Part shown: positions 45,076 to 64,000 of the stretch, piece by piece
Layout of the letters: every line of letters begins with the position of its first letter
Numbering within the stretch: the first letter of the stretch is position 1
DNA from: a virus
Taxonomy: Duplodnaviria > Heunggongvirae > Uroviricota > Caudoviricetes
DNA: 64,000 bases
Reading direction: 5' to 3' (one strand)
IMG/VR virus record: IMGVR_UViG_3300028797_000094
Span: 38,524 to 102,523 of that record
Made by a program: the position numbers and the translations under genes
Notes under the pieces: generated by a model
What the model saw: the letters and a program-made list of their open reading frames with translations, nothing else
The model's database searches: none
Told to the model about the DNA's origin: nothing

Positions 45076-45089
45076 GGAGGCATAAGTAA

Positions 45090-45455: not shown

Positions 45456-45469
45456 TAAAGGAACAAACA

Positions 45470-45721: not shown

Positions 45722-45730
45722 ATAAAAATA

Positions 45731-45785: not shown

Positions 45786-45822
45786 ATATATGTAAAATAA
45801 ATTAATAAGGAGGAAAATAAAA

Positions 45823-47559: not shown

Positions 47560-48202
47560 TATTAGAAACAAATGTATTATTTGTGGCAAAGCTGTTAATG
47601 GCTTTGGAATGATTTGTGACGATTGCAAAGACGCAATTGAGTGGGCAAAGAGATGCATGGAGACTTCAAAGAAACAACGCGAAGGTTATCCATTTATAAA
47701 ACTTCATGAAGAAGAAACAGTTGAAGATGAGCCTGAAGAAGGAACTGTTGATGAAAAAGAGCTGACATATGAAGAAGCTTTAGATATTTTATTATCACAT
47801 GTAGATTTTTCGCTAGAAAATATGATGTGTAAAGATGCTCTTAAAGAAGCTATTGAGTGGGCAAAGAAATGTAAAGCAACACCAGAAATTATTGTTGCTG
47901 ATGGAATTGATGAAAATGCTGTTGAAGAATTATTAAGAAAAGAAAGACCATTTACAAAAGCCAGTGAAATTAAATTGGAAGTTCTAAGTTTTGAAGAACA
48001 ATTAGGTTGTCCATTAGAAGTTAGAGAGAAAGCCTTTGATAAAGGTTTTTATGATGAAAGTGGAAATCATTATACCTGTGAACATTATGTTCCTTATTTA
48101 AAAGAAATGCACACAAGGGGAATTATGTCTCATACTTCAAAGTGTTTCAAACTGAAAGATTACAAAAAGACTTGGTGGCTGAAGGCTGATAAGAGTGAAT
48201 AG
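47552..48202 (+). CDS. Hypothetical protein with N-terminal Zn finger
   Basis: CIICG..ICDDC; repeated EWAK(R/K)C. Confidence 0.7.
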   Translation: MNDIRNKCIICGKAVNGFGMICDDCKDAIEWAKRCMETSKKQREGYPFIKLHEEETVEDEPEEGTVDEKELTYEEALDILLSHVDFSLENMMCKDALKEAIEWAKKCKATPEIIVADGIDENAVEELLRKERPFTKASEIKLEVLSFEEQLGCPLEVREKAFDKGFYDESGNHYTCEHYVPYLKEMHTRGIMSHTSKCFKLKDYKKTWWLKADKSE

Positions 48203-48216
48203 ATATAAAAGGAAAG

Positions 48217-48251
48217 AAGAACTTAAGTATAAAGCTTAAGTTCTTTTTTTT
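48217..48251 (+). terminator. Intrinsic terminator
   Basis: AAGAACTTAAG-TATAAAG-CTTAAGTTCTT plus Ts. Confidence 0.8.
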
Positions 48252-48568
48252 ATTTTGCCCTAGTTAATAAATAGATAGATAATAGTCAGTTAAGGAGCAG
48301 TAAAATAAAAAAAGTAAAAGAACAATATCCTTAACAAGCATTTATCTTCCTCCCCAGTTAAAAAATATAGTATGAAAGAATATCTATCTATATATAATAA
48401 ATAGTAGAACTATATATAGACATAGAGAAGAAGATACTATATATAGACCTATATATAAGCGGGGAACTATATATAGACAGGGAACTAATACTATATATAG
48501 TAAAGATGCTTGAGTCTGAGGCAGACTCTGATTAATAGACTTAGACTTTAGTGAGTTAGTAAAAAGAC

Positions 48569-48604
48569 TTTTGGCCTCACTTTTGGCATCGCTTTTAGCC
48601 TCGC
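48569..48604 (+). repeat. Three 12-bp tandem repeats TTTT(G/A)GC(C/A)TC(A/G)C
   Basis: Direct reading. Confidence 0.75.
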
Positions 48605-48800
48605 TTGGCGGGAATGCTGGCAAGTATTGCAAGCATTATTGCAAGCATCTGGCAGATCAGTGATGAGCTTATTAAATTATTAAATTAATAAATTATTAGT
48701 ATGCTATGTATTGCTATCACTGTCGCAGTGATGCTTTGACATATACTATATAGACTTTAGACTATTAAAAACAAGCACTTTTAGAAAAATCAGACAAATA

Positions 48801-48818
48801 TTTGCTAAAATAAGCGAA
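48801..48818 (+). promoter_or_regulatory. Class III-like promoter in non-coding DNA
   Basis: TTTGCTAAAATAAG; no SD-led ORF follows. Confidence 0.45.
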
Positions 48819-49100
48819 GGGCATTGAAAAGTCATCATAGGCTTTAGCCCACGCCTCACTCAGCAATCGCGCTGAGCTTTTTTTCGCCCACGCTTCGCCC
48901 ACGCCTAGCCTCGCCTCACCACTAAAGCCAGAGCGACCAGCCAAGCTTAAGCCTTGCATTGCCCTATTAGCACTATATATAGTATAGCGCGGAAGCTATG
49001 TAGAGCCAGGCCTTGCTTCTGTCTATATATAGGAAGACTCTAACCTGTATACTATATATAGAGCGGAGCGCGAAGACTAGGAAGAGCACAAGCGCAAAGC

Positions 49101-49378
49101 CGAAATTAAAATCATTTCTGAATTAAATATACTTACCCTAATACTTTTATATGGGCAAAATAAAAACGCGACCACGGCCAAATTTCGAGCTTAAAATCGC
49201 GTTTTTTTATTAGACTATTAAATTAATAAGGGAAATCGCCGAAATTGCCAAATTTGCCGCTGGCGTTGGCAAAATTGGCGAAATTGCCAAAATTAGCTTT
49301 TGCGCTTAGGCGAAATTCGGCAGGTTGGCGAAATTGCCGAAATTGCCCAGATTAGCTTTTTGGCTAATTGCCGAAATT
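49101..49378. repeat. Cluster of CGAAATT/AATTTCG motifs
   Basis: 8 copies, many as GGCGAAATTGCC. Confidence 0.8.
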
Positions 49379-49489
49379 TCCTTTTTTACCTTTTTGTCTA
49401 TATATAGTAAAAAGCCGTAGACTACTATATATAGGCTACAGCTTAATACTTGAAAGAGAATTTATATAATGAAAACAAAACATATTTTT

Positions 49490-49641
49490 TAAAACAGAAA
49501 AGGCCAGGAAAATAAAATTGTTAAAAGAATAACCTGGCCTTGAATGTGAGACAACTAATATATATTTGAGAAAGGAGGATTTGTTTTTTGAATATATATA
49601 GTTAAGGAGGTGTAATTTTTTTATTTGTTATTGCCTCACAT
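49490..49641 (-). ncRNA. Candidate ~150-nt sRNA carrying two anti-Shine-Dalgarno motifs
   Basis: Class II promoter on - (49645-57); nested stems; CACCUCCUUA and UCCUCCUUUCUC; terminator hairpin 49500-49541. Confidence 0.55.
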
Positions 49642-49644
49642 ATT

Positions 49645-49657
49645 ATTATACAATAAA
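49645..49657 (-). promoter_or_regulatory. Class II promoter (minus strand)
   Basis: TTTATTGTATAAT. Confidence 0.65.
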
Positions 49658-49784
49658 CTTTTCAAAAATATATTAGGCTTCAAAAAAAATTTATTGTATA
49701 AAGCGTGGCGCTAACGATACATGCACAGTCGACTCTATTACTATATATAGTATAGGGCGGAGGCTCTATCTGCGCTCACATAAT

Positions 49785-49797
49785 ATTATACAATAAA
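49785..49797 (-). promoter_or_regulatory. Class II promoter (minus strand)
   Basis: TTTATTGTATAAT followed by ATTATGTGAG, like the 49645 copy. Confidence 0.6.
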
Positions 49798-49823
49798 AAG
49801 TACGAAATTTGATCAATTTCGTT

Positions 49824-49887
49824 TGAAAGCGTTTTCATTAAATTCTTTAAATTTTCTATTTACAAATTTGGCCAGATGTGATATAAT
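49824..49887 (+). promoter_or_regulatory. Class I sigmaA promoter with cre-like operator
   Basis: TGAAAGCGTTTTCA; TTTACA 49859; TATAAT 49882. Confidence 0.8.
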
Positions 49888-49924
49888 GTATAATGGGGAA
49901 ATATATATTTTTTTATATATATTA

Positions 49925-49988
49925 TGAAAACGCTTTCGTAAATTTCTTTTAGAAAACTATTTACAAACTAAAGAAAATGTGATATAAT
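49925..49988 (+). promoter_or_regulatory. Class I sigmaA promoter with cre-like operator
   Basis: TGAAAACGCTTTCG; TTTACA 49960; TATAAT 49983. Confidence 0.8.
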
Positions 49989-50116
49989 AAATGGGGAGAT
50001 TTTTTTATTTTTTTTTATTAATAAATTATTAAATTATTAAAACCGTAATTTGCTCAATTTCATATACTAAAAAAATTAAAAATAATTCCCGAAATTACCC
50101 TAATTTCATTATAAAA

Positions 50117-50127
50117 TATTGTATAAT
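50117..50127 (+). promoter_or_regulatory. Class II promoter
   Basis: TATTGTATAAT. Confidence 0.6.
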
Positions 50128-50313
50128 AATATGTAAGGGGAAGTTTCCCATACTATATAATTACGTTAGTAATTATATAGTATTAATTATAGCTATAGCT
50201 ATAGACTTTAGCATAGCTTATATATAGACATATGCTTATATTATATGCTATAGGCTTATACTATAGACATATGCATATGTCATATGGCGCGCACACTTAG
50301 AAAGGAAATCAGT

Positions 50314-50562
50314 ATGGCAAATTTTCAGACCGGGAAAGTTTATATTCATAAGCAAAACGAAATTAGACTAATTTCGCCAGAGCAAATTACTGAGTATTTA
50401 GAGCAGGGCTGGAAGCTTGGCAGTAAAGATTCTAAGCGATGTCATATTCACAAAGATGGAGTCTATAAGAATATCTATACTATATTTCTTCCCGACTATT
50501 TAAAAGCTGGCTGGACATATGGAGCCGCTGGCAAACCAAGAAAAAATAAAAATGTAATTTAG
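50314..50562 (+). CDS. Small protein with two YL..GW..G repeats (homing-endonuclease-type DNA-binding repeats)
   Basis: YIHK..YLEQGWKLG and HIHK..YLKAGWTYG; start may be 50284. Confidence 0.55.
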   Translation: MANFQTGKVYIHKQNEIRLISPEQITEYLEQGWKLGSKDSKRCHIHKDGVYKNIYTIFLPDYLKAGWTYGAAGKPRKNKNVI

Positions 50563-50574
50563 GAGATTTCGTTT

Positions 50575-50871
50575 ATGGATAATAATTTACCAAAGACAAT
50601 TATCAAGTGTCCTCACTGTGGCTATGAGTATACTTTAGAAGAACTATTTTTAGCCAGCGATATTTTAGGAAAGCCTCGCGACTTAGTGCGTGATCCTCTT
50701 GGCAAAATTCTTTACTGCGGCTGAGAAGAAGATAGTGAACCAGAATATAAAACTAAATATATCTGTGATCACTGCAACAAAATTTTTAATGCAGAATTAA
50801 AGATCACAGCTGTAGCTACTAAAGAAGATGAGGCAGTAGACTTTACTAATCTAACAACAAGTCTATTCTAA
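50575..50871 (+). CDS. Zn-ribbon protein, 98 aa (code 4)
   Basis: CPHC..CDHC; one TGA; SD AGGAG. Confidence 0.7.
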
Positions 50872-50897
50872 GAAACGAAATTTGGGAGATTTCAGAA

Positions 50898-52592
50898 ATG
50901 ATATATATTACTGAACTAAAGCCACCATTTAAAATGCCAGGGCTTTCCAGCTTCAGATGCGACTTCCAATATAATCCAGTTTTAGTGGAGGCAGTAAAAG
51001 CCGTGCCAGGATCTACTTGGCATCCGACTCAGAAATTCTGAGAGTTTCCTGCATCGAGCTTAGCTGAAGCTTTAGATACACTAACTATGATTAGTGACAT
51101 CGAGCTACGCTTGGCGCCTGATACCGAAACTTCCGCAATTTCGGAACCACCACTTACTGTAGAAGAAATTAGTGAATTTAAATACAAACCGTTTGACCAT
51201 CAGATAGAAGCTATTAACTATGGGCTATGCCGAAAGAACAAGTGGCTACTATTAGACTCCATGGGTATCGGAAAGAGTCTCGAGATGATGTATTTAGCGG
51301 AGACTCTCCACAAGCGTGGGAAGATCGACCACTGTATGATTATTTGCGGCGTAGATTCACTAAGAACAAATTGGAAGAACGAAATTCAGAAGTTTTCAAA
51401 TTTAGACTGTGTAGTATTAGGCGAATACATTACTAGAAATGGAACTATTAGATACAAGACTATTGAAGAAAGAGCCGAGCAGCTAATTAATCCAATTTCA
51501 GAATTCTTCATTATCGTGAATATCTCTACTATCCGTAATGAAAAAATAGTGAAAGCCTTTAAGAAGTCTAAAAATAAGATCGGAATGATCTGCTTTGACG
51601 AAGCCCACCGAGCTACTACTTCAAGTCAACAGGGAAACAACCTACTAAAGCTTGACTCTGAATACAAGGTAGCCGCATCGGGAACTCCAATCGTAAATTC
51701 CCCAATTTCGGCATTTCTAATGTTGAGCTGAACTGATAATGATAATTCCACTATGACTAATTTCGAGAAGACCTTCTGTAATTTCGGAGGTTTCGGTGGT
51801 AAACAAATAGTAGGATATAAAAATTTAGATTTACTAAAAGATGAATTAGATGCATGTAGCATAAGGAGGACTTTTGATATGGTTAGAGGAGACATGCCAA
51901 CTAAAAATGTAGAGTATGAATTAGTGGAGATGTCAGATGATCACCGTAAATTTTATGAGGCGATCAGAGATGGTGTAAAAGAAGAGGCAGATAAGATATC
52001 ACTAAATTCTGCTAACCTTCTAGCTTTAACCACAAGACTTCGTCAAGCTACTGCTGCGCCTTCTGTGCTAACTAGTAATCCAATAGAGTCTAGTAAAGTG
52101 CTTAGAGCTGTAGAGCTTGCCGAGGATCTATTAGAGTCAGGCGAGAAGGTAGTTATCTTTAGTACATTCGTAGAGCCATGTGAGGTACTCGCATCGAAGC
52201 TTGCCAAATACCAACCACTAATCGCAACAGGCGATATCCCAGATCCTGTGGTTGGAGATAATATTACTAAATTCCGAAATTCAGACAATTTCAATTTGTT
52301 GATCGGAACACATGGAAAATTAGGAACAGGATTTAGTATGCCTGAGTGCCACTATAGTATTATTATCGATACTCCATGGACCGATGCAACTCTCCAACAA
52401 TCAATCGACAGAATTTATAGAATAACCAGTGATCAGCCAATCTTTGTTAAAATTCTTTGCTGCATCGGAACTATTGATGATAGAGTTAGAGAAGTTGTAG
52501 AGAATAAACGAGATTTGGCAGATTTCCTTGTAGATGGCAAATTAACGCCTGCCTTTACTGAGATATTCAGAAATATAATTTTCGACCTTTAA
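50898..52592 (+). CDS. SNF2-family helicase/ATPase, 564 aa (code 4)
   Basis: LLDSMGIGKS, DEAH, ASGTP, QSIDRIYRI; 2 TGA join the fragments. Confidence 0.9.
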
Positions 52593-52595
52593 TAA

Positions 52596-52611
52596 TTGCT
52601 AAATTATTTGT
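52596..52611 (+). promoter_or_regulatory. Class III (late-type) promoter variant
   Basis: TTGCTAAATTATTTGT. Confidence 0.6.
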
Positions 52612-52641
52612 AAAAGCCTAGAATTAACAAAGGAGAAAATT

Positions 52642-54822
52642 ATGGTTAATTATGTTTATGAAGTTAGCTGGAATGAATGTGATGAAAAAGATACATTCCC
52701 TACATTCCCAGAAGCCAAAGATTTTATAAATCAAAAAACTGCTACTGGAAATCCTAATTATGTATCTCCATTCATTTACGAAATAGAATTGGTGGAACAA
52801 GAAGACGGAACTTGGCTACCAACTGGAAATGATGAATGTGTATTTAGTTGGGATGATCAAACAGGCAAACCTGATATTCGTCAACCTAAACTATTTGATG
52901 ATAGTGAATATGAAGGCAAGTTAGCAGACCCTGATTTTGAAATCTATGATGTTTTCGATGTAGATAAGGAACCAAAACCTGCTGAACCAGAGGTTGACCC
53001 ATATGGTGGCCGTAATTTGTTCAATTTCGATGAAGCTCTTTCTGCATTAAATGAAGCTGATGAAGCTTTTGGTGAATGTCAATGTTGTCATGAAGAATTT
53101 CCAAAAGAAGAATTAGTGAAAGAAGGTTCTAGATTCGTTTGTAAAGAATGTGCAGGAAATTTAACAGAAGCTTTAAAGATTATCTCTGACATTAGTGAAT
53201 ATAAGCCTTGGTCAGGCGCTGTAGCTACATGAGACAAGATCGAAGCTGCTAATAAAGTAGATGATTTAGAAGCACTACTAGAAGATGCATATCCTGATGG
53301 ATTAACAATGACTGAATTAAATGACATCTTATGGTTCGACCCTGAATGGATTTTAGAATCTTTAGGATTAGCTACAGAAGATGACGATGTAGAAGAATCA
53401 CTAGAAGATACAGTTCCTCAAGATCTTGCTGATGACCGTACACCAAAACAAGGTAACGTGTTTAAGCTAGAACAACCTGTGGATTATAAAGCTGAGATCG
53501 CTAAGGAAAAATTAGTGGATGAAGAGCTACATGAAGATGTAGAATTAACAGAAGCTATTTTTGATGGACATAAAGAAGTTGCTAAAATTTGTGATAGCAA
53601 AGGAAAAGAAGCTACTAAAACTTATGCTGTCTATGATCGTTTAAATAAAAAAGTTCTTGAATATGTAGCAGAATTAGATGATGCTATTAATAAATGTAAA
53701 GGAACTTATGGTGAAAATATTACTGCAATTGTGCTAGTTAAAAATAACACAGAAGCTAATATTGAGTCTAATGTAATTTTAGCTGAATACAGACAAGGTA
53801 AAGAAACTAAAAATAATTTTAAAGCAGCCTTAGCAAAATTAAAAGCTGCTCAAAAAGTTACAAATTCTGGTTCAGTTGAATTAAATTCTGAAGAAGAACC
53901 AAAAGAGGAACCTAAGGAAGAACCAAAAGAAGAACCAAAGGAAGAAGAAAAGCCTGAGGAAGAACCAAAGGAAGAAGAAAAACCTGAAGGAGATGCTGGT
54001 AAAGAACGTTCATTATCTGCTGCTACTGCAAAAGAAGTATATAATGAAATTAAAACTAAACTAGATGCTGAAGGTTTACTTGATAAGGAAAAAACAGATC
54101 CAAAACTTGTTGGTAATATTAAGAGAGGACTTACATTCCTTGGTAAAGCTTTTACAGCTGCTGTTAAGGAAGGAGCTTCTGCAGAAGAATCATTAGAAAC
54201 TCCTGCTGAAAATGTTTTAGTAGAAGATTTAGACCAAGACTTGGCTAAATGAAATGAATATGTTAAATTCTTACAAGAACAGATTGCTTTAGAAGAAAAA
54301 GCTTTAGAAGAAGCTAAGGATAATGAATTAGTGAAGAAAGCTATTCAAAGAAAGATCGATCTTTACAAAGAAGACCTTGAAGAAGCACTTCCAAATTTAG
54401 TAAAAGATAGTGATGCCGAAATTGAAGCAATTTCAGAAGATGAACTTGAAGCTGTTGAAGAAGAATTAGATACAGCTACCAATGAATCTGTTACTGTAGA
54501 AGTTAAACAACCACTAAAAGAATCATTTAATGAAGATGAATTTAAACGTTACATGGCTGCTGCAGAAAAACTTGGAATCAAGACAGGCGCAGACATGATG
54601 AAATTTAGTAAAGAACATGGCGATGTAAAGGATAAAGCTTTACTAGATGCTATGGAAGCTGCTGCTAATGAACTTCATGAAGATGTAGATCCTAAATCTG
54701 AACATGCACCTGTAGAAGAACCAGAAGAAGATGAAGTTGTAAAAGTAATTAATGATTATGCTGATTCTTGAGCTGATCTACCAGGAGAAGGAAAGTTAGA
54801 ACCTGATAAAGAAGAAAAATAA
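52642..54822 (+). CDS. Acidic multidomain late protein, putative internal head polyprotein, 726 aa (code 4)
   Basis: Three track ORFs joined across TGA; L-x-E motifs; Zn finger; KEEP repeats. Confidence 0.7.
53893..53985 (+). repeat. Tandem KEEP/KEEEKPE coding repeats
   Basis: EEEPKEEPKEEPKEEPKEEEKPEEEPKEEEKPE. Confidence 0.85.
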
Positions 54823-54951: not shown

Positions 54952-55449
54952 ATGGTTAAAACAAAAGAATTAGAAAAAGAAGTTAAAGAAGAAGTTGTAG
55001 AGGATAACTATGATGTTATCTATAAAAGTAAATTACTAAATAAAGAATTTACTGATCTTGATGAATTAAAGAAAGCGGAATCTGAATACAAATTAGAAGT
55101 CACTAAGAAAGAAGAAGCTAAGCTTGCTAGAAAAGAAGAAGCTGCTGTTGTACAAAAAGCTATTGACAATTATGAAATTGCTAAAGTAAAAGCTAATGAT
55201 GTAATTGCTAATGCTTATAAGGAATACAAGGATAAAGTAGCAGAAGCTGAAAAAGCCTTAGCTGAGATCGAGAAAACTGCTAGTGAAGCTTTGGATAAAT
55301 TCTTAGCTGATCATCCAGAGGGCTTCCACTATACTTACAAATCAGAAGATGGAAAAGTAGTTAGAGAATATAACTATTATAAAAATCGTTATGATGTATT
55401 TGATAACTTCAATCAATTCACAGAGCTATTAAAGAAACTTTGGTTTTAG
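54952..55449 (+). CDS. Coiled-coil hypothetical protein
   Basis: SD AGGAG. Confidence 0.75.
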   Translation: MVKTKELEKEVKEEVVEDNYDVIYKSKLLNKEFTDLDELKKAESEYKLEVTKKEEAKLARKEEAAVVQKAIDNYEIAKVKANDVIANAYKEYKDKVAEAEKALAEIEKTASEALDKFLADHPEGFHYTYKSEDGKVVREYNYYKNRYDVFDNFNQFTELLKKLWF

Positions 55450-55475
55450 TAAATAAATAAAATTTAACTGCTGAA

Positions 55476-55502
55476 AAAGACCGATGTAGAGTCGGTCTTT
55501 TT
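55476..55502 (+). terminator. Intrinsic terminator
   Basis: AAAGACCGA-TGTAGAG-TCGGTCTTT plus Ts. Confidence 0.8.
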
Positions 55503-55515
55503 AATTATACAATTA

Positions 55516-55570
55516 TGAAAGCGTTTTCATAAACTTTTCTATTTACAAATTATAATTTTTGTGATATAAT
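55516..55570 (+). promoter_or_regulatory. Class I sigmaA promoter with cre-like operator
   Basis: TGAAAGCGTTTTCA; TTTACA 55542; TATAAT 55565. Confidence 0.85.
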
Positions 55571-55601
55571 TTATGTGTAAAATAAATTACGGAGGAATAT
55601 T

Positions 55602-55841
55602 ATGGAAAAAGAAAAAGAATTTATTGAACAAATTTTAACTATCAGAGATTATTGGGCAAACATTCATCCTAATAATGGCAAAGAGGCAATTGATGGCTTT
55701 ATTCATTCATTATTAGTTATGTTTGATGGCGATGCTGGTGCAAATGATTTTCATTTTATTGTACTAACAGATGCAGTTGATCAACAAAATATTAATGATC
55801 AATATCCGCTACATGAAGTATTTCATATGATGAATAAATAA
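55602..55841 (+). CDS. Early hypothetical protein
   Basis: SD GGAGG. Confidence 0.75.
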   Translation: MEKEKEFIEQILTIRDYWANIHPNNGKEAIDGFIHSLLVMFDGDAGANDFHFIVLTDAVDQQNINDQYPLHEVFHMMNK

Positions 55842-55896
55842 TGAAAACGTTTTCATTAAAAAAACTATTTACAAATAATTTAAATCGTGATATAAT
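55842..55896 (+). promoter_or_regulatory. Class I sigmaA promoter with cre-like operator
   Basis: TGAAAACGTTTTCA; TTTACA 55868; TATAAT 55891. Confidence 0.85.
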
Positions 55897-55931
55897 ATAA
55901 GTGTAAATTTCAATGAGGAGGATATTATAAA

Positions 55932-56393
55932 ATGAGATTACAACATGAACGTTCTTATTACAATGCAGAAAATGTTTTAGTTAGATTAGAAACTATGATT
56001 GCTGATGGTTGGTCAAAACCAATTAGATCAGTGTATGATGAATTATCAATCTTTGATTGGTGGCCAGAAAAGTTAACAGTATTTCATATGAAACAAATGA
56101 GAACATTTTTAAAGACTGCTATTAAGTTAGGTTATAAAGGTTATGTTTGTTTTAAGGTTGGTGCTTCTGGTTGTGCTAATGGTATGTGGGCTTCTAAAGC
56201 AGAAGGCAAAGTTCAAAATGGCGATATTTATTCACCAGATGGCGAAGCAATTTATCGTTCATTTACACCAGATTATACTTATTATAGTTTCTGTGATAAA
56301 GATGAAAATTGGTATCCAGCACAAGAAGAGTTTGATTCTTTAAAGACAACTAAGATGCTTGAACAAGCATTACAAGCAGCAGGTATAATTTAA
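55932..56393 (+). CDS. Early hypothetical protein
   Basis: SD GAGGAGG; 5 Trp, all TGG. Confidence 0.8.
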   Translation: MRLQHERSYYNAENVLVRLETMIADGWSKPIRSVYDELSIFDWWPEKLTVFHMKQMRTFLKTAIKLGYKGYVCFKVGASGCANGMWASKAEGKVQNGDIYSPDGEAIYRSFTPDYTYYSFCDKDENWYPAQEEFDSLKTTKMLEQALQAAGII

Positions 56394-56458
56394 GGAAAGC
56401 GTTTTCATACGCTTTCTTTAAAAAAACTATTTACAAAATGTTCAAACTGTGATATAAT
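56394..56458 (+). promoter_or_regulatory. Class I sigmaA promoter with cre-like operator
   Basis: GGAAAGCGTTTTCA plus overlapping half-site ACGCTTTC; TTTACA 56430; TATAAT 56453. Confidence 0.8.
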
Positions 56459-56487
56459 ATATATAGAAAATAACTAAGGAGGAACAT

Positions 56488-56730
56488 ATGGAAAAAGTTT
56501 TTATTACAAGAGCACTTCCTTGTGCAGGCGGATTGGTTGTTGAAGATGCAGTACGTTATAATGTTGATGCAACTGTTGTTTATACAGATGGCAATATTGA
56601 TTATGTTGTTTTAGCAGGAACTAAATTTGATCTTTATGATTTTTTAATGGATAATTTTTCTGAAGATGATTATGATTATAATAAAATTCTTAATGAAGCA
56701 ACATTAGTTAAATATGAAATGGAGGACTAA
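56488..56730 (+). CDS. Early hypothetical protein
   Basis: SD AAGGAGG. Confidence 0.7.
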   Translation: MEKVFITRALPCAGGLVVEDAVRYNVDATVVYTDGNIDYVVLAGTKFDLYDFLMDNFSEDDYDYNKILNEATLVKYEMED

Positions 56731-56731
56731 T

Positions 56732-57016
56732 ATGGAATACATTCATAGAGAAACAGGCAAGACTTATAAAAAATTTATTCAGGCAGAAGTAGAATATCAC
56801 AGAGCAATTTGTGGTGGACTAAATGAATTAGTTAAAGTTGAAAACTTAGAACTTCCAACTAAGAAAGATATTTATAATCATGTTCGTGCTGAGAAGAAAA
56901 TAATTGCAAGTGAATGCAAATATAATACAGTTCGTGATAATATATTTTATAGAATATATTATGGTGCAACAATTTATAAACCAATGGAGGAAAATAATGG
57001 AAAAGAAAGTTGTTAA
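56732..57016 (+). CDS. Early hypothetical protein
   Basis: SD GGAGG; start moved. Confidence 0.7.
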   Translation: MEYIHRETGKTYKKFIQAEVEYHRAICGGLNELVKVENLELPTKKDIYNHVRAEKKIIASECKYNTVRDNIFYRIYYGATIYKPMEENNGKESC

Positions 57017-57509
57017 TGTTTTTGGTAGAAATAATTATTTATTAGGTGTTGACAAAGATAATATCAGATATTATATTGAAGAACCTAATTTTGATTGTGG
57101 TTGGTATTGGGGAGGTTTATATATAGAAACATTTACAAACAATTATCAACCAACAAGATCTGTTGATATTAGCACACATTCACATTTTGATTCTATGTTT
57201 TTAAATAGCACAGATTCATTTGGACCTGAAGTATTTAAGAAAAGATTTAAAACTACTGTGTTGACAGATGATGAGTTGTGGAAGCTTTTAGAATTAGGTC
57301 GTACTTTCTATACTCTTAGAAGTGCTGCTGATTTATTTCATATTGGTGGAAGTCATATTACAAGAAATAATTGTTATGATGTTATTAAAGACCAAGATAT
57401 GTATGAACAAATAGTGAAGGTTAAGATCCCAGCATTGGTTGCAGAAATACTACAATTATTAGGCGGAACAAAGACTGCAAAAGATTTTGAAAATAAAGTA
57501 AAATTTTAG
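56997..57509 (+). CDS. Early hypothetical protein
   Basis: SD GGAGG; FDCGWYW motif; start moved. Confidence 0.75.
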   Translation: MEKKVVNVFGRNNYLLGVDKDNIRYYIEEPNFDCGWYWGGLYIETFTNNYQPTRSVDISTHSHFDSMFLNSTDSFGPEVFKKRFKTTVLTDDELWKLLELGRTFYTLRSAADLFHIGGSHITRNNCYDVIKDQDMYEQIVKVKIPALVAEILQLLGGTKTAKDFENKVKF

Positions 57510-57564
57510 GAAAGCGCTTTCATAGCGTTTTTCTATTTACAAATTAAATAAATTGTGATATAAT
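57509..57564 (+). promoter_or_regulatory. Class I sigmaA promoter with cre-like operator
   Basis: GGAAAGCGCTTTCA; TTTACA 57536; TATAAT 57559. Confidence 0.85.
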
Positions 57565-57594
57565 ATAACTATAAAATAAATAAGGAGAAAAAAT

Positions 57595-57903
57595 ATGTTA
57601 ACAGAAAGTTTAAAAAAGAAAGTTCAATTTGTTAAAGAAATCAGTGAGGCTGTTGTTAAAGTTCAACCAAATGTTATTGGAATGAGCTATGAAGTTTATC
57701 AAAGCAAAAAGAATCCAAAATGGATTACTGAGTTTTTAATTGTTAATTATGATGGTGGAGCAATGTCAGTTAGAAATTGTTCAGCTACAAGTTGTAGTGG
57801 AATCTTTAAAGAGATTGCTAAGCTATTAGATCATGGCTATTATGATGAATTAGATTATTACACTGATATCATCAATAGCGATTCGGAGTTAATCAGTGAA
57901 TAG
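57595..57903 (+). CDS. Early hypothetical protein
   Basis: SD AAGGAG. Confidence 0.75.
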   Translation: MLTESLKKKVQFVKEISEAVVKVQPNVIGMSYEVYQSKKNPKWITEFLIVNYDGGAMSVRNCSATSCSGIFKEIAKLLDHGYYDELDYYTDIINSDSELISE

Positions 57904-58276
57904 CGATATTATGGATCTACTGACTGAAGAACTTCTTGAGTTGGTAGAGCGAGCTGAAGCTAAGCGACATCTAAACTTACAAAGAATAGAGTCGCTTAGA
58001 GACTACAGCGATGCAAAGACCGAGCGAAAGAAAACAAAAATTTATGCAGACTGTTTTAAAAAAGTTTCTGTTAATCTTTTAGAAAAATATACAGAAGCAT
58101 TAAAACAGAATCAAAGAGATATTACTTTACTAACCGATGCAAATCTTTTAGATGAGTATGCGGCATTTTATCGTGAAGAAGTTGAAATGTATGATAATAT
58201 AATAAATGAATATTATGATTATCTAAAACAGGGACACATTATAGATGCATTTTTAGGAAAAGAAAGAGAGGACTAA
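57896..58276 (+). CDS. Early coiled-coil hypothetical protein
   Basis: SD GGAG, GTG start. Confidence 0.65.
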   Translation: MNSDIMDLLTEELLELVERAEAKRHLNLQRIESLRDYSDAKTERKKTKIYADCFKKVSVNLLEKYTEALKQNQRDITLLTDANLLDEYAAFYREEVEMYDNIINEYYDYLKQGHIIDAFLGKERED

Positions 58277-58280
58277 ATGT

Positions 58281-58463
58281 ATGAAGCGCAGGATTCATCT
58301 ACGTGATAATATTAGTGGCAAAGACATTACAGGTACTGTAGAGATTCCTGCAAAGGATCATTTAGCAGCACAACAAAAGTACAAAGCCAAAGTGTTCAAA
58401 CCAAAGAAAGGCAAAGGTTCATTTACCCGCCGAAAGAAACATAAGAAACAGGAAGAAGAATAA
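58281..58463 (+). CDS. ArfA-like basic peptide (putative ribosome rescue factor)
   Basis: KVFKPKKGKGSFTRRKKH resembles the ArfA motif KKGKGSYxRKxKH; SD GAGG. Confidence 0.55.
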   Translation: MKRRIHLRDNISGKDITGTVEIPAKDHLAAQQKYKAKVFKPKKGKGSFTRRKKHKKQEEE

Positions 58464-58528
58464 TGAAAGCGTTTTCATAAAACTTTTTTCAATTTTCTAT
58501 TTACAAACTTTTTATTTTGTGATATAAT
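58464..58528 (+). promoter_or_regulatory. Class I sigmaA promoter with cre-like operator
   Basis: TGAAAGCGTTTTCA; TTTACA 58500; TATAAT 58523. Confidence 0.85.
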
Positions 58529-58558
58529 ATTAGTGTAAGATAAATTAAGGAGGATATT

Positions 58559-59089
58559 ATGAACTTACAAATTACTATTGAAGAAAAAACTATTAAAGAT
58601 TTTTTGAAGCAAAGACTTATTGGTAAGAACTTTGGCTATTGTTGGGACTATGATGTTAAAAATGCATTTGATGATTTTTTAAAATCTTATAATATTGATA
58701 CAAGAAACTTCAGTTGGCAAAAACATCGTGGCGAAAAACAATCATTCAGACTTACTTATAAAGGTTTTGAATATGGTTATGTTGAAGCTAAGAAACAAAA
58801 AGTTAATACACACCATTCTTGGTTAGGTGGAACTTATTGTGATTGGACTTTTAAAGATGTTAATGTTGTTATTTATAAAGGCACTTTAAATGCTGCAATT
58901 GAAGACGTTGAACAAAGAGCTGTTGAAAAACAAAATAGAGACAACGCACAAGAACAAGCAGCAATAAAGATTTATAAATTAGTTATTGAAAATTGTAAAG
59001 ATCGTTATGAAGCTGATAACATGATTGATTATATTAAAAGTCATCGTTATACTTTACAAGATAAGATGAAAAAAAGCGCACAAGCTTAG
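58559..59089 (+). CDS. Early hypothetical protein
   Basis: SD AAGGAGG. Confidence 0.75.
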   Translation: MNLQITIEEKTIKDFLKQRLIGKNFGYCWDYDVKNAFDDFLKSYNIDTRNFSWQKHRGEKQSFRLTYKGFEYGYVEAKKQKVNTHHSWLGGTYCDWTFKDVNVVIYKGTLNAAIEDVEQRAVEKQNRDNAQEQAAIKIYKLVIENCKDRYEADNMIDYIKSHRYTLQDKMKKSAQA

Positions 59090-59098
59090 GAGGACACT

Positions 59099-59521
59099 AT
59101 GGGAACTTTATGGATGAAAGATAATACACTATCACAAGAAACAATAGATCGTCGTAGAACTTATCTTGAGAAAAGTGAAAAGCTAAATGAAGTTGCTAAA
59201 GATTACTTTAAGGTCTTAGGCTTTAAAGTAATCAAGCATAAGTTTGGTTACAAAGCTTGCAAGAGTGATGTTGACTTAACTTTCTATTTTGGTGCAACTG
59301 TTGTTGATACTTGTTGGAGCTATGCTGAAAATCATGGTGAATATAGAGTTCATGCTAAAATACCTTATACTGATATTGAAGTTGCTGATTTTTATATTAA
59401 ACTTAACACAGTAGAAACTGATGCTGAAGAAGAAACTAAAATTAGAAAGTTATTTGCTGATAGTGATTTTGATAAGCTTGTAAGATGGAGACTTCCATAT
59501 ACAAATAAAAAGTTTATTTAA
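59099..59521 (+). CDS. Early hypothetical protein
   Basis: SD AGGAGG. Confidence 0.75.
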   Translation: MGTLWMKDNTLSQETIDRRRTYLEKSEKLNEVAKDYFKVLGFKVIKHKFGYKACKSDVDLTFYFGATVVDTCWSYAENHGEYRVHAKIPYTDIEVADFYIKLNTVETDAEEETKIRKLFADSDFDKLVRWRLPYTNKKFI

Positions 59522-59542
59522 AAAGTAGAGGAAGAGGATTTA

Positions 59543-59607
59543 TGAAAACGTTTTCATAGATCTTTTTTCAAAAAACTATTTACAAATTTAAATATTTGTG
59601 ATATAAT
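59543..59607 (+). promoter_or_regulatory. Class I sigmaA promoter with cre-like operator
   Basis: TGAAAACGTTTTCA; TTTACA 59579; TATAAT 59602. Confidence 0.85.
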
Positions 59608-59646
59608 ATAAGTGTAAAAATAAATAAAGCAAGGAGGATAGTATTT

Positions 59647-60363
59647 ATGTTTTACAAAACTGGTGTTGATATTTGCAATAATCGTTCAATGTATGATTTT
59701 CTAAATAATCATTTTATGTACGATACAATGAACAGTTGGAATGGATTGAAGAGCATTGCTAATAATGTTAAGATTTATAACTTACATTTAGAAGGCGATG
59801 AATGGGAAGCATTAAAAGCTTTAGAGCGTGATGAGTATTTTGAAGTTAATGATATGATTGAAGATTGGGAATATCTTCATAAAGGTTATAAAGTTGGCTT
59901 CAATGGTCGTTCAGGCGGATACTTAGTATTATATAGTGATAATGATAATGGAAATATTTTACCTGATTATTTATATGGATTTGATTCATATGAAGACTTC
60001 AAAGATCATTATCTAACTTATAATTATGGCACAATGTCAGATGCTAAGAATGAACTTAGAGGTTATGTTGAATTAGTTCGTGATTTTGATGTGTTGTGTG
60101 ATCGTATTCGTGATTATGTTAATGAACTTTCTAAGAGAGATTTAATGGCAGATTATCTTGAAGATGTTGTTGAAGCTTTTAATGAACATTATTGTGATGA
60201 TTTAGCTTGGCTTGAGTTTTCTGGATTAGAAGTTATAGATGGTCAAGTTGATTTAAGTGAAATCAATCAATTACAATGTTTAAGTGATGCATTTTTAAAT
60301 ATGTTCAATAATGATTATAAAATTGTTATTGAAGAAAGTGTTTTAAGATTGGAGGCAAAATAA
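59647..60363 (+). CDS. Early hypothetical protein
   Basis: SD AAGGAGG; GFNGRSGGYLVL motif. Confidence 0.8.
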   Translation: MFYKTGVDICNNRSMYDFLNNHFMYDTMNSWNGLKSIANNVKIYNLHLEGDEWEALKALERDEYFEVNDMIEDWEYLHKGYKVGFNGRSGGYLVLYSDNDNGNILPDYLYGFDSYEDFKDHYLTYNYGTMSDAKNELRGYVELVRDFDVLCDRIRDYVNELSKRDLMADYLEDVVEAFNEHYCDDLAWLEFSGLEVIDGQVDLSEINQLQCLSDAFLNMFNNDYKIVIEESVLRLEAK

Positions 60364-60800
60364 TGGCTGATGTAGTTATTAAATGTTCAGGTAAGATGCG
60401 AGAAATTGAAATTGATCCAGTTTCAGAATTAGATGCTGAGCTTGATGAAGACTTAGTAGAAGCAAATGAAGAAGACTTCACTGATGTAGAGGAGTTAGAT
60501 GCAGACACTAATGAAAAAGTTGTCTACCAAGTTTGGTTATTAGGTCGTGGTGAGTTTGATGATGTTAATGATTTTACATATTTAATTGACGACTACAATG
60601 ATGTAGAAGAGGCAATTAAATGTTGGAACTTCTTTAATGAAAACGAAATTAGTCTAATTAAGAATAAAGATGAAAACTTCTTTATTCCTGCTGATATATA
60701 TTCAGTAGATTTAGTTGTTGAAGAAGTTGCAGTTGATGAAGATGGCAATGAAGAATGTTTTAATATAGTAAGAGAGACTAATATTAAAACAAAGGCGTAA
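60363..60800 (+). CDS. Acidic early hypothetical protein
   Basis: TAATG coupling. Confidence 0.75.
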   Translation: MADVVIKCSGKMREIEIDPVSELDAELDEDLVEANEEDFTDVEELDADTNEKVVYQVWLLGRGEFDDVNDFTYLIDDYNDVEEAIKCWNFFNENEISLIKNKDENFFIPADIYSVDLVVEEVAVDEDGNEECFNIVRETNIKTKA

Positions 60801-60803
60801 GTT

Positions 60804-61400
60804 ATGAAGCGTAGAAATAAACTTCACGCTTATCAGAGAGCTTCTGAGCGCTTAGGCTTACATAGACTTGAGACTGAGCGCTTAGTGAAAGAAGCTTGGT
60901 CAGCAGGCAAGACTTATAATGAGCTTGAAGATGGACCACTTAGAAATTATGTTTATCATAAGAGTAGAAAGAAGAAAGTTAAAGTATATAAAAACATTTT
61001 ATTTATCTTTAACAAGACGAGCAAGACTTGTATTACAATGTATAAAATACCTAACAAAATTTTATTATTAGAAGAAAGGAATCAAGAAATGAAAAAGAGT
61101 AAAAATGTTAGAAGTAAATATTTAGGATTACAATTTTTAAATAGTGAAGGTCAAGTATGGACAGTTGTGAGAGTTTCAAAGACTTCGTACAACAACTATC
61201 GTTTCAATTTGAGTCGTGCTGCAGAAAATGATGCAACTAAGACAATTTCAATTACAAGCAAGACAATGAAAAAGCTTGCTACAAGTTATTTAACTATTGA
61301 AGATATCTTAACACACAAAGAAGATTTAAGAAAGAAAAATATCAATACTTACAGAAATACTTCTTGGTATACTTGGAGCGAGGCTAAGAGTTGTAAGTAA
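60804..61400 (+). CDS. Basic early hypothetical protein (possibly two domains)
   Basis: ORF; HAYQRASERLG. Confidence 0.65.
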   Translation: MKRRNKLHAYQRASERLGLHRLETERLVKEAWSAGKTYNELEDGPLRNYVYHKSRKKKVKVYKNILFIFNKTSKTCITMYKIPNKILLLEERNQEMKKSKNVRSKYLGLQFLNSEGQVWTVVRVSKTSYNNYRFNLSRAAENDATKTISITSKTMKKLATSYLTIEDILTHKEDLRKKNINTYRNTSWYTWSEAKSCK

Positions 61401-61425
61401 AAAACGAAATTAAGGAGGTTTCGTT

Positions 61426-62280
61426 ATGTTCAAATTATTTATTGAAGATTTAAAACAAGCAGCATCTTTTTTAGAAAAGAGCTGGAAAGAATATACAGTT
61501 ACGCAATTAGCGAATATGTTATGTCAAGCAATGGATGATGGCGATGATTTAATGATCAACGCCACATTCAGTGGTTTGATGCTACATTATCAACCGATGA
61601 TGGTGAAGATGTACCAAAAACATGGACGCGTATTAAAAATGGAGATCGGTGATATTGCATCTTGGTTTAGTAGATCTATTATGCAAGCGTGTGATCCTAA
61701 AAACAGAACATGGCAAAAGAAAGAAAAGAATTGCAGTGCTGGAACCGTAATTAATCAAATTTTAAATACAAGATATATTGCAATGGCTTATTATGAATCT
61801 AACTTAGATCTACACAAAGCTAACTTCGCCACTACAAGTTTAGATGCGCCACTTGATTATGATACAGATGATACAAGAGCAGACTTATTGGTGAGCGAAT
61901 ATCCTACACCAAGTGATCAATTTAGTGGAGCTTATGCAATAATCCAAGATCTGTTAGATGATAATAAGATCATTGAAGCTATCATCGCAGAAACAATTGC
62001 TTACAACGATTGCTACAAAGTTAATAGCAAGACAGTTAAAGAAGTTGGCGAAGATGGAACAGTTAAGAAGTATAAAAATATATCTACTGAGTTTTGGGCT
62101 TATAGAGCAGTGCAAATCTTATCTAACTTGCCTGAGAATTATGAAGATTATTTCTTAGACAGATTTAATGTAGATAAAGAAATGTTTGAAACAGGTTTGA
62201 ACAAGATTAGAACTTCTAAAAACCCTAAACTTTATGAGTATTTAGAGTCAACAAAAAATTGCTTGAGATCTATTTTATAG
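61426..62280 (+). CDS. Putative phage sigma-like factor
   Basis: Region-2-like helices and TTSLDAPLD; weak recognition. Confidence 0.45.
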   Translation: MFKLFIEDLKQAASFLEKSWKEYTVTQLANMLCQAMDDGDDLMINATFSGLMLHYQPMMVKMYQKHGRVLKMEIGDIASWFSRSIMQACDPKNRTWQKKEKNCSAGTVINQILNTRYIAMAYYESNLDLHKANFATTSLDAPLDYDTDDTRADLLVSEYPTPSDQFSGAYAIIQDLLDDNKIIEAIIAETIAYNDCYKVNSKTVKEVGEDGTVKKYKNISTEFWAYRAVQILSNLPENYEDYFLDRFNVDKEMFETGLNKIRTSKNPKLYEYLESTKNCLRSIL

Positions 62281-62290
62281 ATTTCAAGTT

Positions 62291-62303
62291 TTTATTGTAT
62301 AAT
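62291..62303 (+). promoter_or_regulatory. Class II promoter
   Basis: TTTATTGTATAAT. Confidence 0.65.
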
Positions 62304-62355
62304 AATAGAGAAACGTAATTTCTGTAATTTCGTTAATTTCATTTTGGAGGTTTTT

Positions 62356-63078
62356 ATGTATAAAGATATAATGTCGCCACATGCTTTTGGCAGATACAAT
62401 ATTTATTTAGTGCAACTAATTGGATTAGAAGCTGCAGTGTATTGGGAACTGTTGTATTCTATTTCTGACCTGGCCTACAGTAAGTGTGAGAGAAAAGAAA
62501 CACTAAATACTAAAGGATACTTCACAGTAGACCGTAAATATGTCAAGGAAAGAACAGGAGTCGCTACTGAGCAGCAAAGAACTTATGATCGCGCTTTCAT
62601 GAAGATGGGTGCAGTGATAATTAGTGAAGAAGATTCCGATGCGCTTTATGTGGATAATGGTGTGATGATTAAATTTCTAACTTCCGAAATTTCAAATTCA
62701 GAGAAAAAGAAGATCTTTACAGAAGCTTTATCTGATGGCAAATTAGTGATTAGAGAGCAAAAAGGAGCTGCGAAGAAGAATGGCATGATCTCGCGCTGGA
62801 AACAATGGGTGAGCGGATCAGAAGAGTTACTCGCAGCATATGCTGAAGCTTTTAGTGTTTGGTATAGCGCAGGCATGCAGACCGATGCGATGATTAAAGC
62901 AAAGATTGATGCAGTAGAAACTGCCACTAAAGATGAAGGATTAAAGATAGAGATCTTAAGAAGAGCTACACAAAGTGGATACAGAGATCTTGAGGCAGTG
63001 ATCTGGAGAGCTAAACAGGATTACAATCCACTAAAAAATCAGAAGACTTCTACAGGAATTGGGAATCAGGTATTTTAA
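62356..63078 (+). CDS. Putative replication initiator (N-terminal winged helix)
   Basis: YNIYLVQLIGLEAAVY..GYFTVDRKYVKERTGV..QQR pattern of phage initiators. Confidence 0.55.
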   Translation: MYKDIMSPHAFGRYNIYLVQLIGLEAAVYWELLYSISDLAYSKCERKETLNTKGYFTVDRKYVKERTGVATEQQRTYDRAFMKMGAVIISEEDSDALYVDNGVMIKFLTSEISNSEKKKIFTEALSDGKLVIREQKGAAKKNGMISRWKQWVSGSEELLAAYAEAFSVWYSAGMQTDAMIKAKIDAVETATKDEGLKIEILRRATQSGYRDLEAVIWRAKQDYNPLKNQKTSTGIGNQVF

Positions 63079-63106
63079 AAGATCAGGTTTAAATCTGGTC
63101 TTTTTA
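63078..63106 (+). terminator. Intrinsic terminator
   Basis: AAAGATCAGG-TTTAAA-TCTGGTCTTT plus Ts. Confidence 0.75.
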
Positions 63107-63119
63107 TTTTACTTAAAAA

Positions 63120-63174
63120 TGAAAACGTTTTCATTGTTTTTTCTATTTACAAATATTTTGTTTTATGATATAAT
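63120..63174 (+). promoter_or_regulatory. Class I sigmaA promoter with cre-like operator
   Basis: TGAAAACGTTTTCA; TTTACA 63146; TATAAT 63169. Confidence 0.85.
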
Positions 63175-63206
63175 ATATATAGAAAATTAAGTAAGAGGTA
63201 TAATAA

Positions 63207-63635
63207 ATGAAAGTAAAGTTTGATTTTAATTTAGATGCGTGGATTCAAAATCTTGAAATTGAGGCTGACTCTATAGAACAAGCAAAAGACAAACTAATGT
63301 CTATGTCTTTAGAAGATATGATCGAAGCTGGTGCTTATATGAAAGACTTTAATATCGACTCAGTTGACACAGAAATTACTGAAGCAACTTATACTGTTAA
63401 AGTTGTTAGTATTGATTATGCTATTGAAAGTTATGATGTAGATGAGTTTGATACTATGTCTGATGAAGAAGTAGAAGCAGAGATCGCTAGAGTTAAATCA
63501 AGTCTTCCACAAGAACTTGAATTAGAAATTGAATGTGAGCCTGATGATCTAGATGATTATGTTGCTGATGCTATATCAGATGAAACAGGCTGGTTAGTTA
63601 ATGACTGTGAATATGAAATCGTGAGTAAGAGATAA
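63207..63635 (+). CDS. Acidic early hypothetical protein
   Basis: SD GAGG. Confidence 0.75.
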   Translation: MKVKFDFNLDAWIQNLEIEADSIEQAKDKLMSMSLEDMIEAGAYMKDFNIDSVDTEITEATYTVKVVSIDYAIESYDVDEFDTMSDEEVEAEIARVKSSLPQELELEIECEPDDLDDYVADAISDETGWLVNDCEYEIVSKR

Positions 63636-63639
63636 TCTC

Positions 63640-63694
63640 TGAAAGCATTTTCATTATAAAAACTATTTACAAATTGTTTAAAATATGATATAAT
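63640..63694 (+). promoter_or_regulatory. Class I sigmaA promoter with cre-like operator
   Basis: TGAAAGCATTTTCA; TTTACA 63666; TATAAT 63689. Confidence 0.8.
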
Positions 63695-63728
63695 ATAATT
63701 GTAAATAATTAAGGAGGAAATGTTATTT

Positions 63729-63893
63729 ATGGAAAAAACTTATATTGTTAAAATTATTAAAACTGATTTTGTTGAGGAAGAAGAAGAAATCTTTGAATAC
63801 GAAGAAGAGCTCGACGATGAAAAAATGAGCGATCAAGAAATCGCACAACAACTTTTAGAAACTGCTTTGGCTGGCTGCACTGATGAAGATTAG
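63729..63893 (+). CDS. Acidic 54-aa early protein
   Basis: SD AAGGAGG. Confidence 0.65.
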   Translation: MEKTYIVKIIKTDFVEEEEEIFEYEEELDDEKMSDQEIAQQLLETALAGCTDED

Positions 63894-63904
63894 GAGGAGC
63901 TGAA

Positions 63905-64000
63905 ATGTTAAAGAAAGATATTAAAGCAATTAAAGAAGTTTATATTGATGAACGTGAATGTGGACACACTATTTGCGACTTTGATGATGAACAACACGAC
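63905..64000 (+). CDS. Early protein, truncated by the window end
   Basis: SD AGGAGG; open to the end. Confidence 0.6.
   Translation, partial: MLKKDIKAIKEVYIDERECGHTICDFDDEQHD

Follow-up and report, generated by a model that had tools for sequence, protein, structure and literature searches.

An ArfA-like peptide with a new N-terminal module, a candidate ribosome-rescue factor, in a TGA-recoded jumbo phage of the bovine gut

Ribosome-rescue factors that act through a release factor have been thought of as narrow, late inventions: ArfA in beta- and gamma-proteobacteria, BrfA in Bacillus and ArfT in Francisella. ArfA itself has been described as confined to some beta- and gamma-proteobacteria (PMC6881298). 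In the E. coli protein, residues Q27-E30 form the strand that recruits RF2, by beta-augmentation of this factor, and L19, L24 and F25 make up the patch that binds Trp319 of RF2 and explains the RF2 specificity (PMC5378476, PMC8012679); the pair K44-H45, common with BrfA, contacts U534 of the 16S rRNA (PMC8012679, PMC6881298). Bacterial arfA and brfA are translated from non-stop mRNA, and tmRNA keeps both of them off (PMC8012679, PMC6881298). ArfA-like genes of phages are already annotated in the literature: gp30 of the cultured, standard-code pelagiphage HTVC027P, an ArfA by annotation only, is transcribed both early and late (PMC12753301). As regards phages with a changed genetic code, a survey of TGA- and TAG-recoded phages names suppressor tRNAs, release factors and TrpRS as the genes of the code change, leaves ArfA unmentioned, and reports an RF1 gene in some TGA-recoded Jade phages (bioRxiv 10.1101/2021.08.26.457843).

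The gene considered here lies in a single virus record of 237,392 bp from the bovine gut, judged complete and with 29% GC; the window, that is, the whole stretch of DNA analysed, covers 64,000 nucleotides of this record. The genome is that of a jumbo phage recoded to read TGA as Trp. Its tiling with greedily chosen, non-overlapping ORFs increases from 0.73 (table 11) to 0.93 when TGA is taken as sense. Among the 20 tRNA genes found with ARAGORN, all of them outside the window, there is a tRNA-Trp(UCA) at positions 229814-229888 of the genome, together with the normal tRNA-Trp(CCA). Moreover, none of the 38 ORFs (>=60 aa) in the two standard-code stretches of the window ends in TGA. Because of the tiling gain, the suppressor tRNA and the absence of TGA stops, the term UGA-recoding phage, used in the initial annotation of the gene, is correct. 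Genes containing TGA occupy positions 1-29563 and 39733-54822 of the window; positions 29648-39640 and 54952-64000 have open frames under the standard code, and the latter stretch, served by host-type promoters, holds the ArfA-like gene. A search of the phage genome for an RF-1 domain or release-factor gene found none; a peptide deformylase is encoded. Near-identical DNA has been recovered in several bovine-gut metagenome studies, and none was found when 10 kb were compared by megablast with the INPHARED phages. The host is probably a low-GC Gram-positive bacterium.

The features of the locus are collected in Table 1. The ORF starts with ATG and encodes 60 aa; its position, its lack of Trp and its C-terminal string KVFKPKKGKGSFTRRKKHK, after which KQEEE follows, are as first described. 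It closes a small operon of three ORFs, since the nearest promoter-like sites lie before the first ORF and behind the gene. The upstream site probably drives all three genes, and a terminator scan found no terminator-like site between it and the ArfA-like gene. The gene had been credited with an early promoter; the site is indeed of the early sigma-70 type, though it heads the three-gene operon and is not the gene's own. Sequences similar to AGAGAGGA, namely GAGAGGA or GGGAGGA, precede the gene in three relatives (L004, L001 and L002).

Table 1. Coordinates of the features at the ArfA-like locus, as positions of the window
Feature	Position	Strand	Remarks
Sigma-70-type promoter-like site	57536..57564	+	TTTACA-17-TATAAT, TG extended, 11/12 matches
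Operon ORF 1, 102 aa, without known family	57595..57903	+	Homologues in L004 and L102
Operon ORF 2, 126 aa, without known family	57896..58276	+	Directly 5' of the ArfA-like gene in close relatives
Shine-Dalgarno-like AGAGAGGA, purine-rich	58265..58272	+	9 nt 5' of the ATG, read from the sequence
ArfA-like gene, 60 codons and TAA	58281..58463	+	ORF list, homology searches, dN/dS
N-terminal module, residues 1-23	58281..58349	+	Predicted beta-hairpin, subfamily-specific, without classical ArfA counterpart
Residues 24-39, AKDHLAAQQKYKAKVF	58350..58397	+	Predicted helix 26-33; aligned without gaps to ArfA A15-E30
Residues 40-55, basic tail KPKKGKGSFTRRKKHK	58398..58445	+	ArfA mRNA-channel motif, Lys-His pair included
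TAA stop of the ArfA-like gene	58461..58463	+	TGA next in frame; ordinary stop, no non-stop design
14-nt palindrome TGAAAGCGTTTTCA	58464..58477	.	Immediately 3' of the stop; then a T-rich run
Next sigma-70-type promoter-like site	58500..58528	+	End of the ArfA-like operon

The neighbouring genes have no Pfam family, and one of them belongs to a PHROG of unknown function. The 126-aa protein encoded directly upstream is found at the same position, with 50-56% identity, in L001, L002 and L004, and away from the ArfA-like gene in the more distant genome G002 (L102). It was considered as a conserved partner and rejected, as the two genes are adjacent in close relatives only. Behind the gene, no terminator was called by the terminator scan, the palindrome TGAAAGCGTTTTCA included. 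This palindrome is repeated letter for letter, immediately 3' of the stop codons, in L004 and L002, relatives which are 65-70% identical; it may form a weak hairpin or serve the next promoter as an operator. It lies 5' of the next promoter-like site and agrees with the cre consensus of CcpA. As for transcription, a contig of 282 nt from a bovine-gut metatranscriptome (RNA library) covers positions 58070-58351 with 98% identity and runs from the 126-aa gene into the ArfA-like gene. Among the assembled contigs compared, it gives a weak hint that the gene is transcribed, and it may stem from DNA carried over into the library.

The ORF is a real gene under purifying selection and not a chance ORF. 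Its dN/dS values are 0.12-0.17 against three relatives (65-70% identical), with synonymous sites near saturation, and it is kept at the same position and in the same gene order in L001, L002 and L004. Eight close homologues in metagenomes share 65-97% identity with the protein, and K43, G44, G46, S47, F48 and R50 are invariant among its close relatives. A profile of nine close sequences, run against 1.84 billion representatives, retrieved 72 clusters (50% identity) at E<=1e-3; most members have 55-63 aa and match end to end. With the 60-aa protein, the NCBIfam search gave no match and the PHROGs search gave phrog_37108 alone (E 0.02, unknown function).

The initial annotation called the peptide ArfA-like; by sequence comparison, the relationship holds for the C-terminal half, residues 29-58. 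The Pfam family ArfA (PF03889) is matched with E 2.1e-5, positions 23-44 of the profile, i.e. the second half of its 44-position model, falling on residues 34-55. In this HMM search, of the kind that had been proposed as a check, the 24.3 bits lie just below the gathering score of 25.5. In the family at large, 42 of 60 members reach E<=0.01 with Pfam ArfA (best value 1.5e-24), and at its weak end the family profile retrieves Vibrio proteins named ArfA by NCBI. The alignment of the phage-type sequences with 12 classical ArfA proteins by hhalign has a probability of 97.5% (E 7.8e-12, 60% identity) over residues 29-58, and residues 1-28 stay unaligned. Both this unaligned part and the Pfam score below the gathering level count against a rescue function, and the low-complexity, basic tail inflates the similarity of short motifs.

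Longer alignments come from pairwise searches. The only PDB sequence matches found with phmmer, at E about 0.05, come from ribosome-RF2 complexes and are chains of E. coli ArfA; the alignment runs without gaps from phage residue 19 or 20 to 56, and ArfA residue n corresponds to phage residue n+9. With tblastn against species-representative bacterial genomes, residues 18-58 match ArfA of Vibrio, Psychromonas and Pseudoalteromonas at 44-51% identity (42-51% with Aliivibrio included), and residues 24-58 match the mini-ArfA of Pelagibacteraceae. In the gap-free register, AKDHLAAQQKYKAKVF falls on ArfA A15-E30, the hydrophobic minidomain and the RF2-recruiting strand Q27-E30. ArfA L19, F25 and V29 correspond to phage L28, Y34 and V38, and I11 to V20; within the tail, K33-K34-G35-K36-G37-S38 correspond to K42-S47, Y39 to F48, R41 to R50 and K44-H45 to K53-H54. 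Residues 42-54, holding the KGKGS[YF]xR tail motif and the Lys-His pair, are invariant or nearly so in the relatives. Besides the tail and the strand region, the phage protein keeps two of the three residues of the patch for RF2 Trp319 (L19, L24 and F25), and L24 is replaced by K33; P23 becomes Q32 and A18 becomes H27, a His that is invariant in the family. The part of E. coli ArfA that makes it specific for RF2 and activates this factor is only partly conserved, and since A18, L24 and P23 are changed to His, K33 and Q32, activation of RF2 may differ or fail.

The invariant His counts against rescue, as at the A18 position even Thr abolishes the activation of RF2 in E. coli. In the A18T mutant RF2 is still recruited and its activation is blocked (PMC8012679, PMC5378476), and the same observation can be turned into a different reading: the phage peptide might act as a decoy which holds RF2 in a compact, inactive state on vacant or stalled ribosomes, with less RF2 left free and the suppressor tRNA favoured at UGA. 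It would suit this idea that the phage is devoid of an RF1 gene of the kind found in some TGA-recoded Jade phages. Nevertheless, the reading is very improbable. The correspondence between A18 and the His derives from a short pairwise alignment, beyond the profile-aligned part; ribosomes that are trapped would be lost to translation of the phage; termination at UAA still calls for RF2 unless RF1 suffices; and members of the subfamily are also present in bacterial contexts with the standard code (L020, L022). Furthermore, binding of the ArfA type needs an empty mRNA channel, so binding sites for such a decoy would be few compared with the RF2 pool.

Structure prediction was made with AlphaFold2 on the family alignment (mean pLDDT 74.9) and gives two strands (residues 2-8 and 15-21), one helix (26-33) and a tail in extended form. 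The N-terminal module, residues 1-23, is kept across the 72-cluster family, and the protein can best be regarded as an ArfA core preceded by a new module with the predicted fold of a beta-hairpin. Residues 36-39 (AKVF), the counterpart of ArfA Q27-E30, lie in the aligned block with V38 conserved; the isolated model has no strand there, as would be expected for a segment that folds on binding. A Foldseek search of the PDB with the monomer model returned nothing at E<=0.001. The prediction of a complex between the peptide and RF2 of an Erysipelotrichaceae-type order had a score of 0.00, which counts neither way, the contact between ArfA and RF2 being formed on the ribosome.

That the clear homology is limited to the tail and the adjoining strand, with a new N-terminal hairpin, could also mean that the ArfA-type tail merely anchors the peptide to the ribosome or to RNA and that no release factor is recruited. 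Such docking might, for instance, block the mRNA channel of idle host ribosomes and bias initiation, or deliver the hairpin to the decoding centre. The tail does travel as a module, since the motif is embedded in phage proteins of 1076-1169 aa and occurs fused in proteins of about 120 aa. Yet Q27-E30 and F25, by which ArfA recruits RF2, belong to the stretch that is conserved and aligned. The peptide also agrees with active-length ArfA in its size, its layout and an acidic end behind the tail, and the Pfam, NCBIfam, PHROGs and Foldseek searches suggested no other activity; plain docking and its two examples are accordingly considered unlikely.

The large and fused proteins with the motif come from viral contigs. 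In L101 (9149-12658) and L104 (5188-8418), belonging to G004 and G005, the two proteins have 1169 and 1076 aa and carry KPKKGKGS[FY]TRRAKHK at roughly residues 270-300; their C-terminal part matches a protein of the present phage (genome 19468-22080). The motif may be freed from these proteins by processing or be active within them. Another fused form is encoded in L105 (6937-7311), L113 (2111-2485) and L114 (3764-4138): these proteins have about 120 aa, and in them the ArfA-like motif is combined with a conserved C-terminal domain, GNYTKPGMRKR...GQWSARKAQ...GGGY.

Rescue by way of a release factor is preferred over docking and the decoy: with moderate confidence, the product is taken for a constitutively made ribosome-rescue peptide of the ArfA type that depends on a release factor and represents a new subfamily of phages and mobile elements. 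Ribosome rescue is the best functional guess because of the ArfA homology of the C-terminal half, strand region and tail together. Ribosome binding, recruitment of a release factor and the choice of RF2 are deduced by analogy with the structures obtained for E. coli and B. subtilis. On this basis, the tail KPKKGKGSFTRRKKHK would be inserted into the mRNA entry channel of the 30S subunit provided that no mRNA fills it, the situation in ribosomes that have stalled where a truncated or stop-less message ends. The AKDHL..KY.AKVF segment would recruit the class-1 release factor of the host, most likely RF2, and the recruited factor would hydrolyse the peptidyl-tRNA and free the ribosome. As the gene has an ordinary TAA and lies in a standard-code operon with a host-type (early) promoter, a peptide of active length would be made whenever the operon is transcribed, without the tmRNA-dependent control through non-stop mRNA. 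The likely benefit to the phage would be that ribosomes stay available while messages are cut or read through during infection. The immediate neighbours, being ORFans, give no functional context, which speaks against rescue; around other family members, genes for translation and RNA upkeep are found, and the present genome likewise has its deformylase and 20 tRNA genes.

Thus, in the interval 8801-10198 of the 110-kb phage contig L115 the ArfA-like gene starts 6 nt after a T4-type RNA ligase gene (PF09414), with a peptide deformylase 2.5 kb on its 5' side, and the locus has the appearance of a small gene cluster for RNA repair and the upkeep of translation. In L116, a 70-kb Logan contig of 25% GC, the gene is accompanied by a peptide deformylase, a topoisomerase and the ribosomal protein bS21; both contigs share an SbcCD-deformylase-topoisomerase block. 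The gene is also present, as a DKTKYTRKQKH variant, in L018, a 130-kb contig rich in homing endonucleases; in its interval 10001-11362 the ArfA-like gene stops with TGA and is followed by 1.2 kb without called genes, the first letters of which are tRNA-like. Close to the present phage stand G001 (223 kb, with terminal repeats), whose ArfA-like protein is 68% identical, and the phage contig L001 (36 kb); more distant members occur in G002 (232,051 bp, complete) and G003 (63 kb).

Two cellular contexts are known for the family: a low-GC bacterial contig (L020), where the gene comes after two ftsH-like genes, and an Erysipelotrichaceae MAG (L022), where it is located 5' of an FtsK-like gene. In the order of this MAG, the only one of the Bacillota in which a chromosomal homologue was found, the family is present in 2 of 301 sampled genomes; RF1 and RF2 are both encoded in all 41 genomes sampled for them, and the switch-loop Trp of RF2 is invariant. 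The idea of a host core gene was rejected on the 2/301 figure. Given the large phage contigs, the two cellular contexts and this low frequency, the family is mainly one of phages and mobile elements. The scan of IMG/VR for the tail motif gave 14 loci, G002 and G003 among them. Against INPHARED, tblastn with the peptide and with a marine mini-ArfA found no match, and with Vibrio ArfA only three weak Salmonella records; as the low-complexity filter and the short queries probably hide true matches, this result is silent on the frequency of the gene in cultured phages.

The gene had further been proposed as a missing part of the code-switch machinery, one that might divert RF2 and so favour read-through of UGA. 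Co-occurrence with TGA recoding is seen within the subtype: all four IMG/VR records which carry the N-extended form (G000, G001, G002 and G003) are recoded, their tiling rising from about 0.73 to 0.92-0.94 with TGA as sense. Yet they belong to one clade, so their agreement amounts to a single observation; 175 of the 316 ORFs of G000 have matches in G001, 112 in G002 and 33 in G003. The association of subtype and recoding is inseparable from shared ancestry, and at least eight of the 12 other motif loci of IMG/VR are standard-code, with a tiling of 0.81-0.97 and no gain from TGA (G004, G005, L105-L108, L112-L114); L109-L111 are small contigs of ambiguous code, and no clear recoding was seen in L115 and L018 over the 20 kb judged. 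As ArfA-type genes are also found in these standard-code contigs and in the pelagiphage (PMC12753301), they are not special to UGA recoders: this is part of what had been named in advance as refuting the idea (no binding to the ribosome or RF, and equal frequency in standard-code phages), and the proposal of RF2 diversion as a missing part of the switch is unsupported.

Some further observations bear on the code of individual relatives. G002 (L117-L128) is TGA-recoded and has, by ARAGORN, 4 tRNA genes only and no UCA suppressor, unlike G000 and G001. In L116, in-frame TGA falls on aromatic positions, or beside them, in a conserved SbcC-like gene, and it occurs even in replication and repair genes, with TGG rare; recoding there seems to be genome-wide, or the host itself may use code 4, and the peptide would then have to work with RF1, as such a host would lack RF2.

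A milder connection with the code, in which rescue is coupled to the switch from UGA to Trp, has also been weighed. Suppression by tRNA-Trp(UCA) would lead to read-through or pausing at UGA, and hence to ribosomes at 3' ends or on cleaved mRNA, and the added rescue capacity would make the recoding tolerable. The link is biologically reasonable, since under suppressor tRNAs ribosomes run on to the 3' ends of mRNAs and tagging by tmRNA increases (Ueda et al. 2002, cited in PMC8012679), and since cells in which a stop codon is left unassigned are dependent on tmRNA, ArfA and ArfB (PMC6207430). The genome offers the corresponding setting, being TGA-recoded, with a UCA suppressor tRNA, no release-factor gene and no TGA stop in the 38 early ORFs, and G000-G003 are all recoded, with in-frame TGA seen in the related L116 as well. 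On the other hand, these five share many genes, so the association is one phylogenetic event; the early-type promoter would give expression before the late recoded genes are read; and there are homologues in standard-code viral contigs and the pelagiphage (PMC12753301), and in bacteria or mobile elements of standard-code genomes (L020, L022). Such a coupling is rather doubtful. That the peptide is a part of the switch in either version, by absorbing ribosomes at mRNA 3' ends or through RF2 held inactive by the His in favour of tRNA-Trp(UCA), is slightly less probable still, and its membership in a recoding machinery is speculative.

A rescue peptide that depends on a release factor remains the preferred reading. 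The combination of an ArfA-type tail with a new N-terminal module forms a family of at least 72 sequence clusters, carried chiefly by mobile elements and by large phages of gut and rumen. Should it be a rescue factor, phages would bring an unregulated ribosome-rescue activity into hosts which possibly have none, with a bearing on the upkeep of phage translation during mRNA destruction and possibly on the tolerance of stop-codon recoding. Moreover, the peptide is a small and easy test object for release-factor specificity.

Compared with E. coli ArfA (YhdL; PF03889; PDB 5U4I, 5MDV, 5MGP, 5H5U), the phage protein is likewise small and devoid of the GGQ motif; both have the KKGKGS[YF]xR..KH tail, preceded at equal spacing by a V-containing strand and an aromatic residue, and its 60 aa come near the length of active, truncated ArfA (about 55 aa). 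The gap-free alignment takes in ArfA residues 12-49. The predicted N-terminal beta-hairpin of about 20 residues is found in the phage protein only, and the GRGxIKDNA start of ArfA is absent from it, in addition to the His and Lys which stand for A18 and L24. The E. coli arfA mRNA is a non-stop message cut by RNase III, whereas the phage gene has its own TAA and thus none of the non-stop-mRNA control of bacterial arfA and brfA; its only palindrome begins behind this stop, and a normal stop codon and no strong hairpin inside the ORF were found in all 11 family genes whose DNA was examined. The gene also lies outside the described range of ArfA, in a 29% GC phage of the bovine gut, and cellular homologues of the subtype were found only in L020 and L022.

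B. subtilis BrfA (YqkK; PMC6881298) is the RF2-dependent factor of a Gram-positive bacterium; its basic tail lies in the mRNA channel and a strand augments the RF2 sheet. Of the features of BrfA the present protein was found to share only the Lys-His pair, and no BrfA chain was among the PDB sequence matches at E<=10. BrfA has two N-terminal helices with a conserved Arg25 that contact H69/H71, a non-stop mRNA and a distribution restricted to Bacillaceae; for the phage protein a hairpin and one helix are predicted. Some family members carry DKTKYTRKxKH in place of KKGKGSFxRKxKH. The ArfT of Francisella (PMC6299226), likened here by its description only, is a further small, release-factor-dependent rescue factor, and works with RF1 and RF2.

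Finally, gp30 of HTVC027P and the marine ArfA-like ORFs of IMG/VR (L106-L112) are, like the present gene, phage-borne and short, with the tail motif and a normal stop. The marine phage proteins are minimal cores of 38-45 aa, near the Pelagibacter-type ArfA of their hosts and encoded by standard-code phages; the present protein has in addition the predicted hairpin, and it defines a new, N-extended subfamily, which is carried by large gut and rumen phages and by mobile elements.
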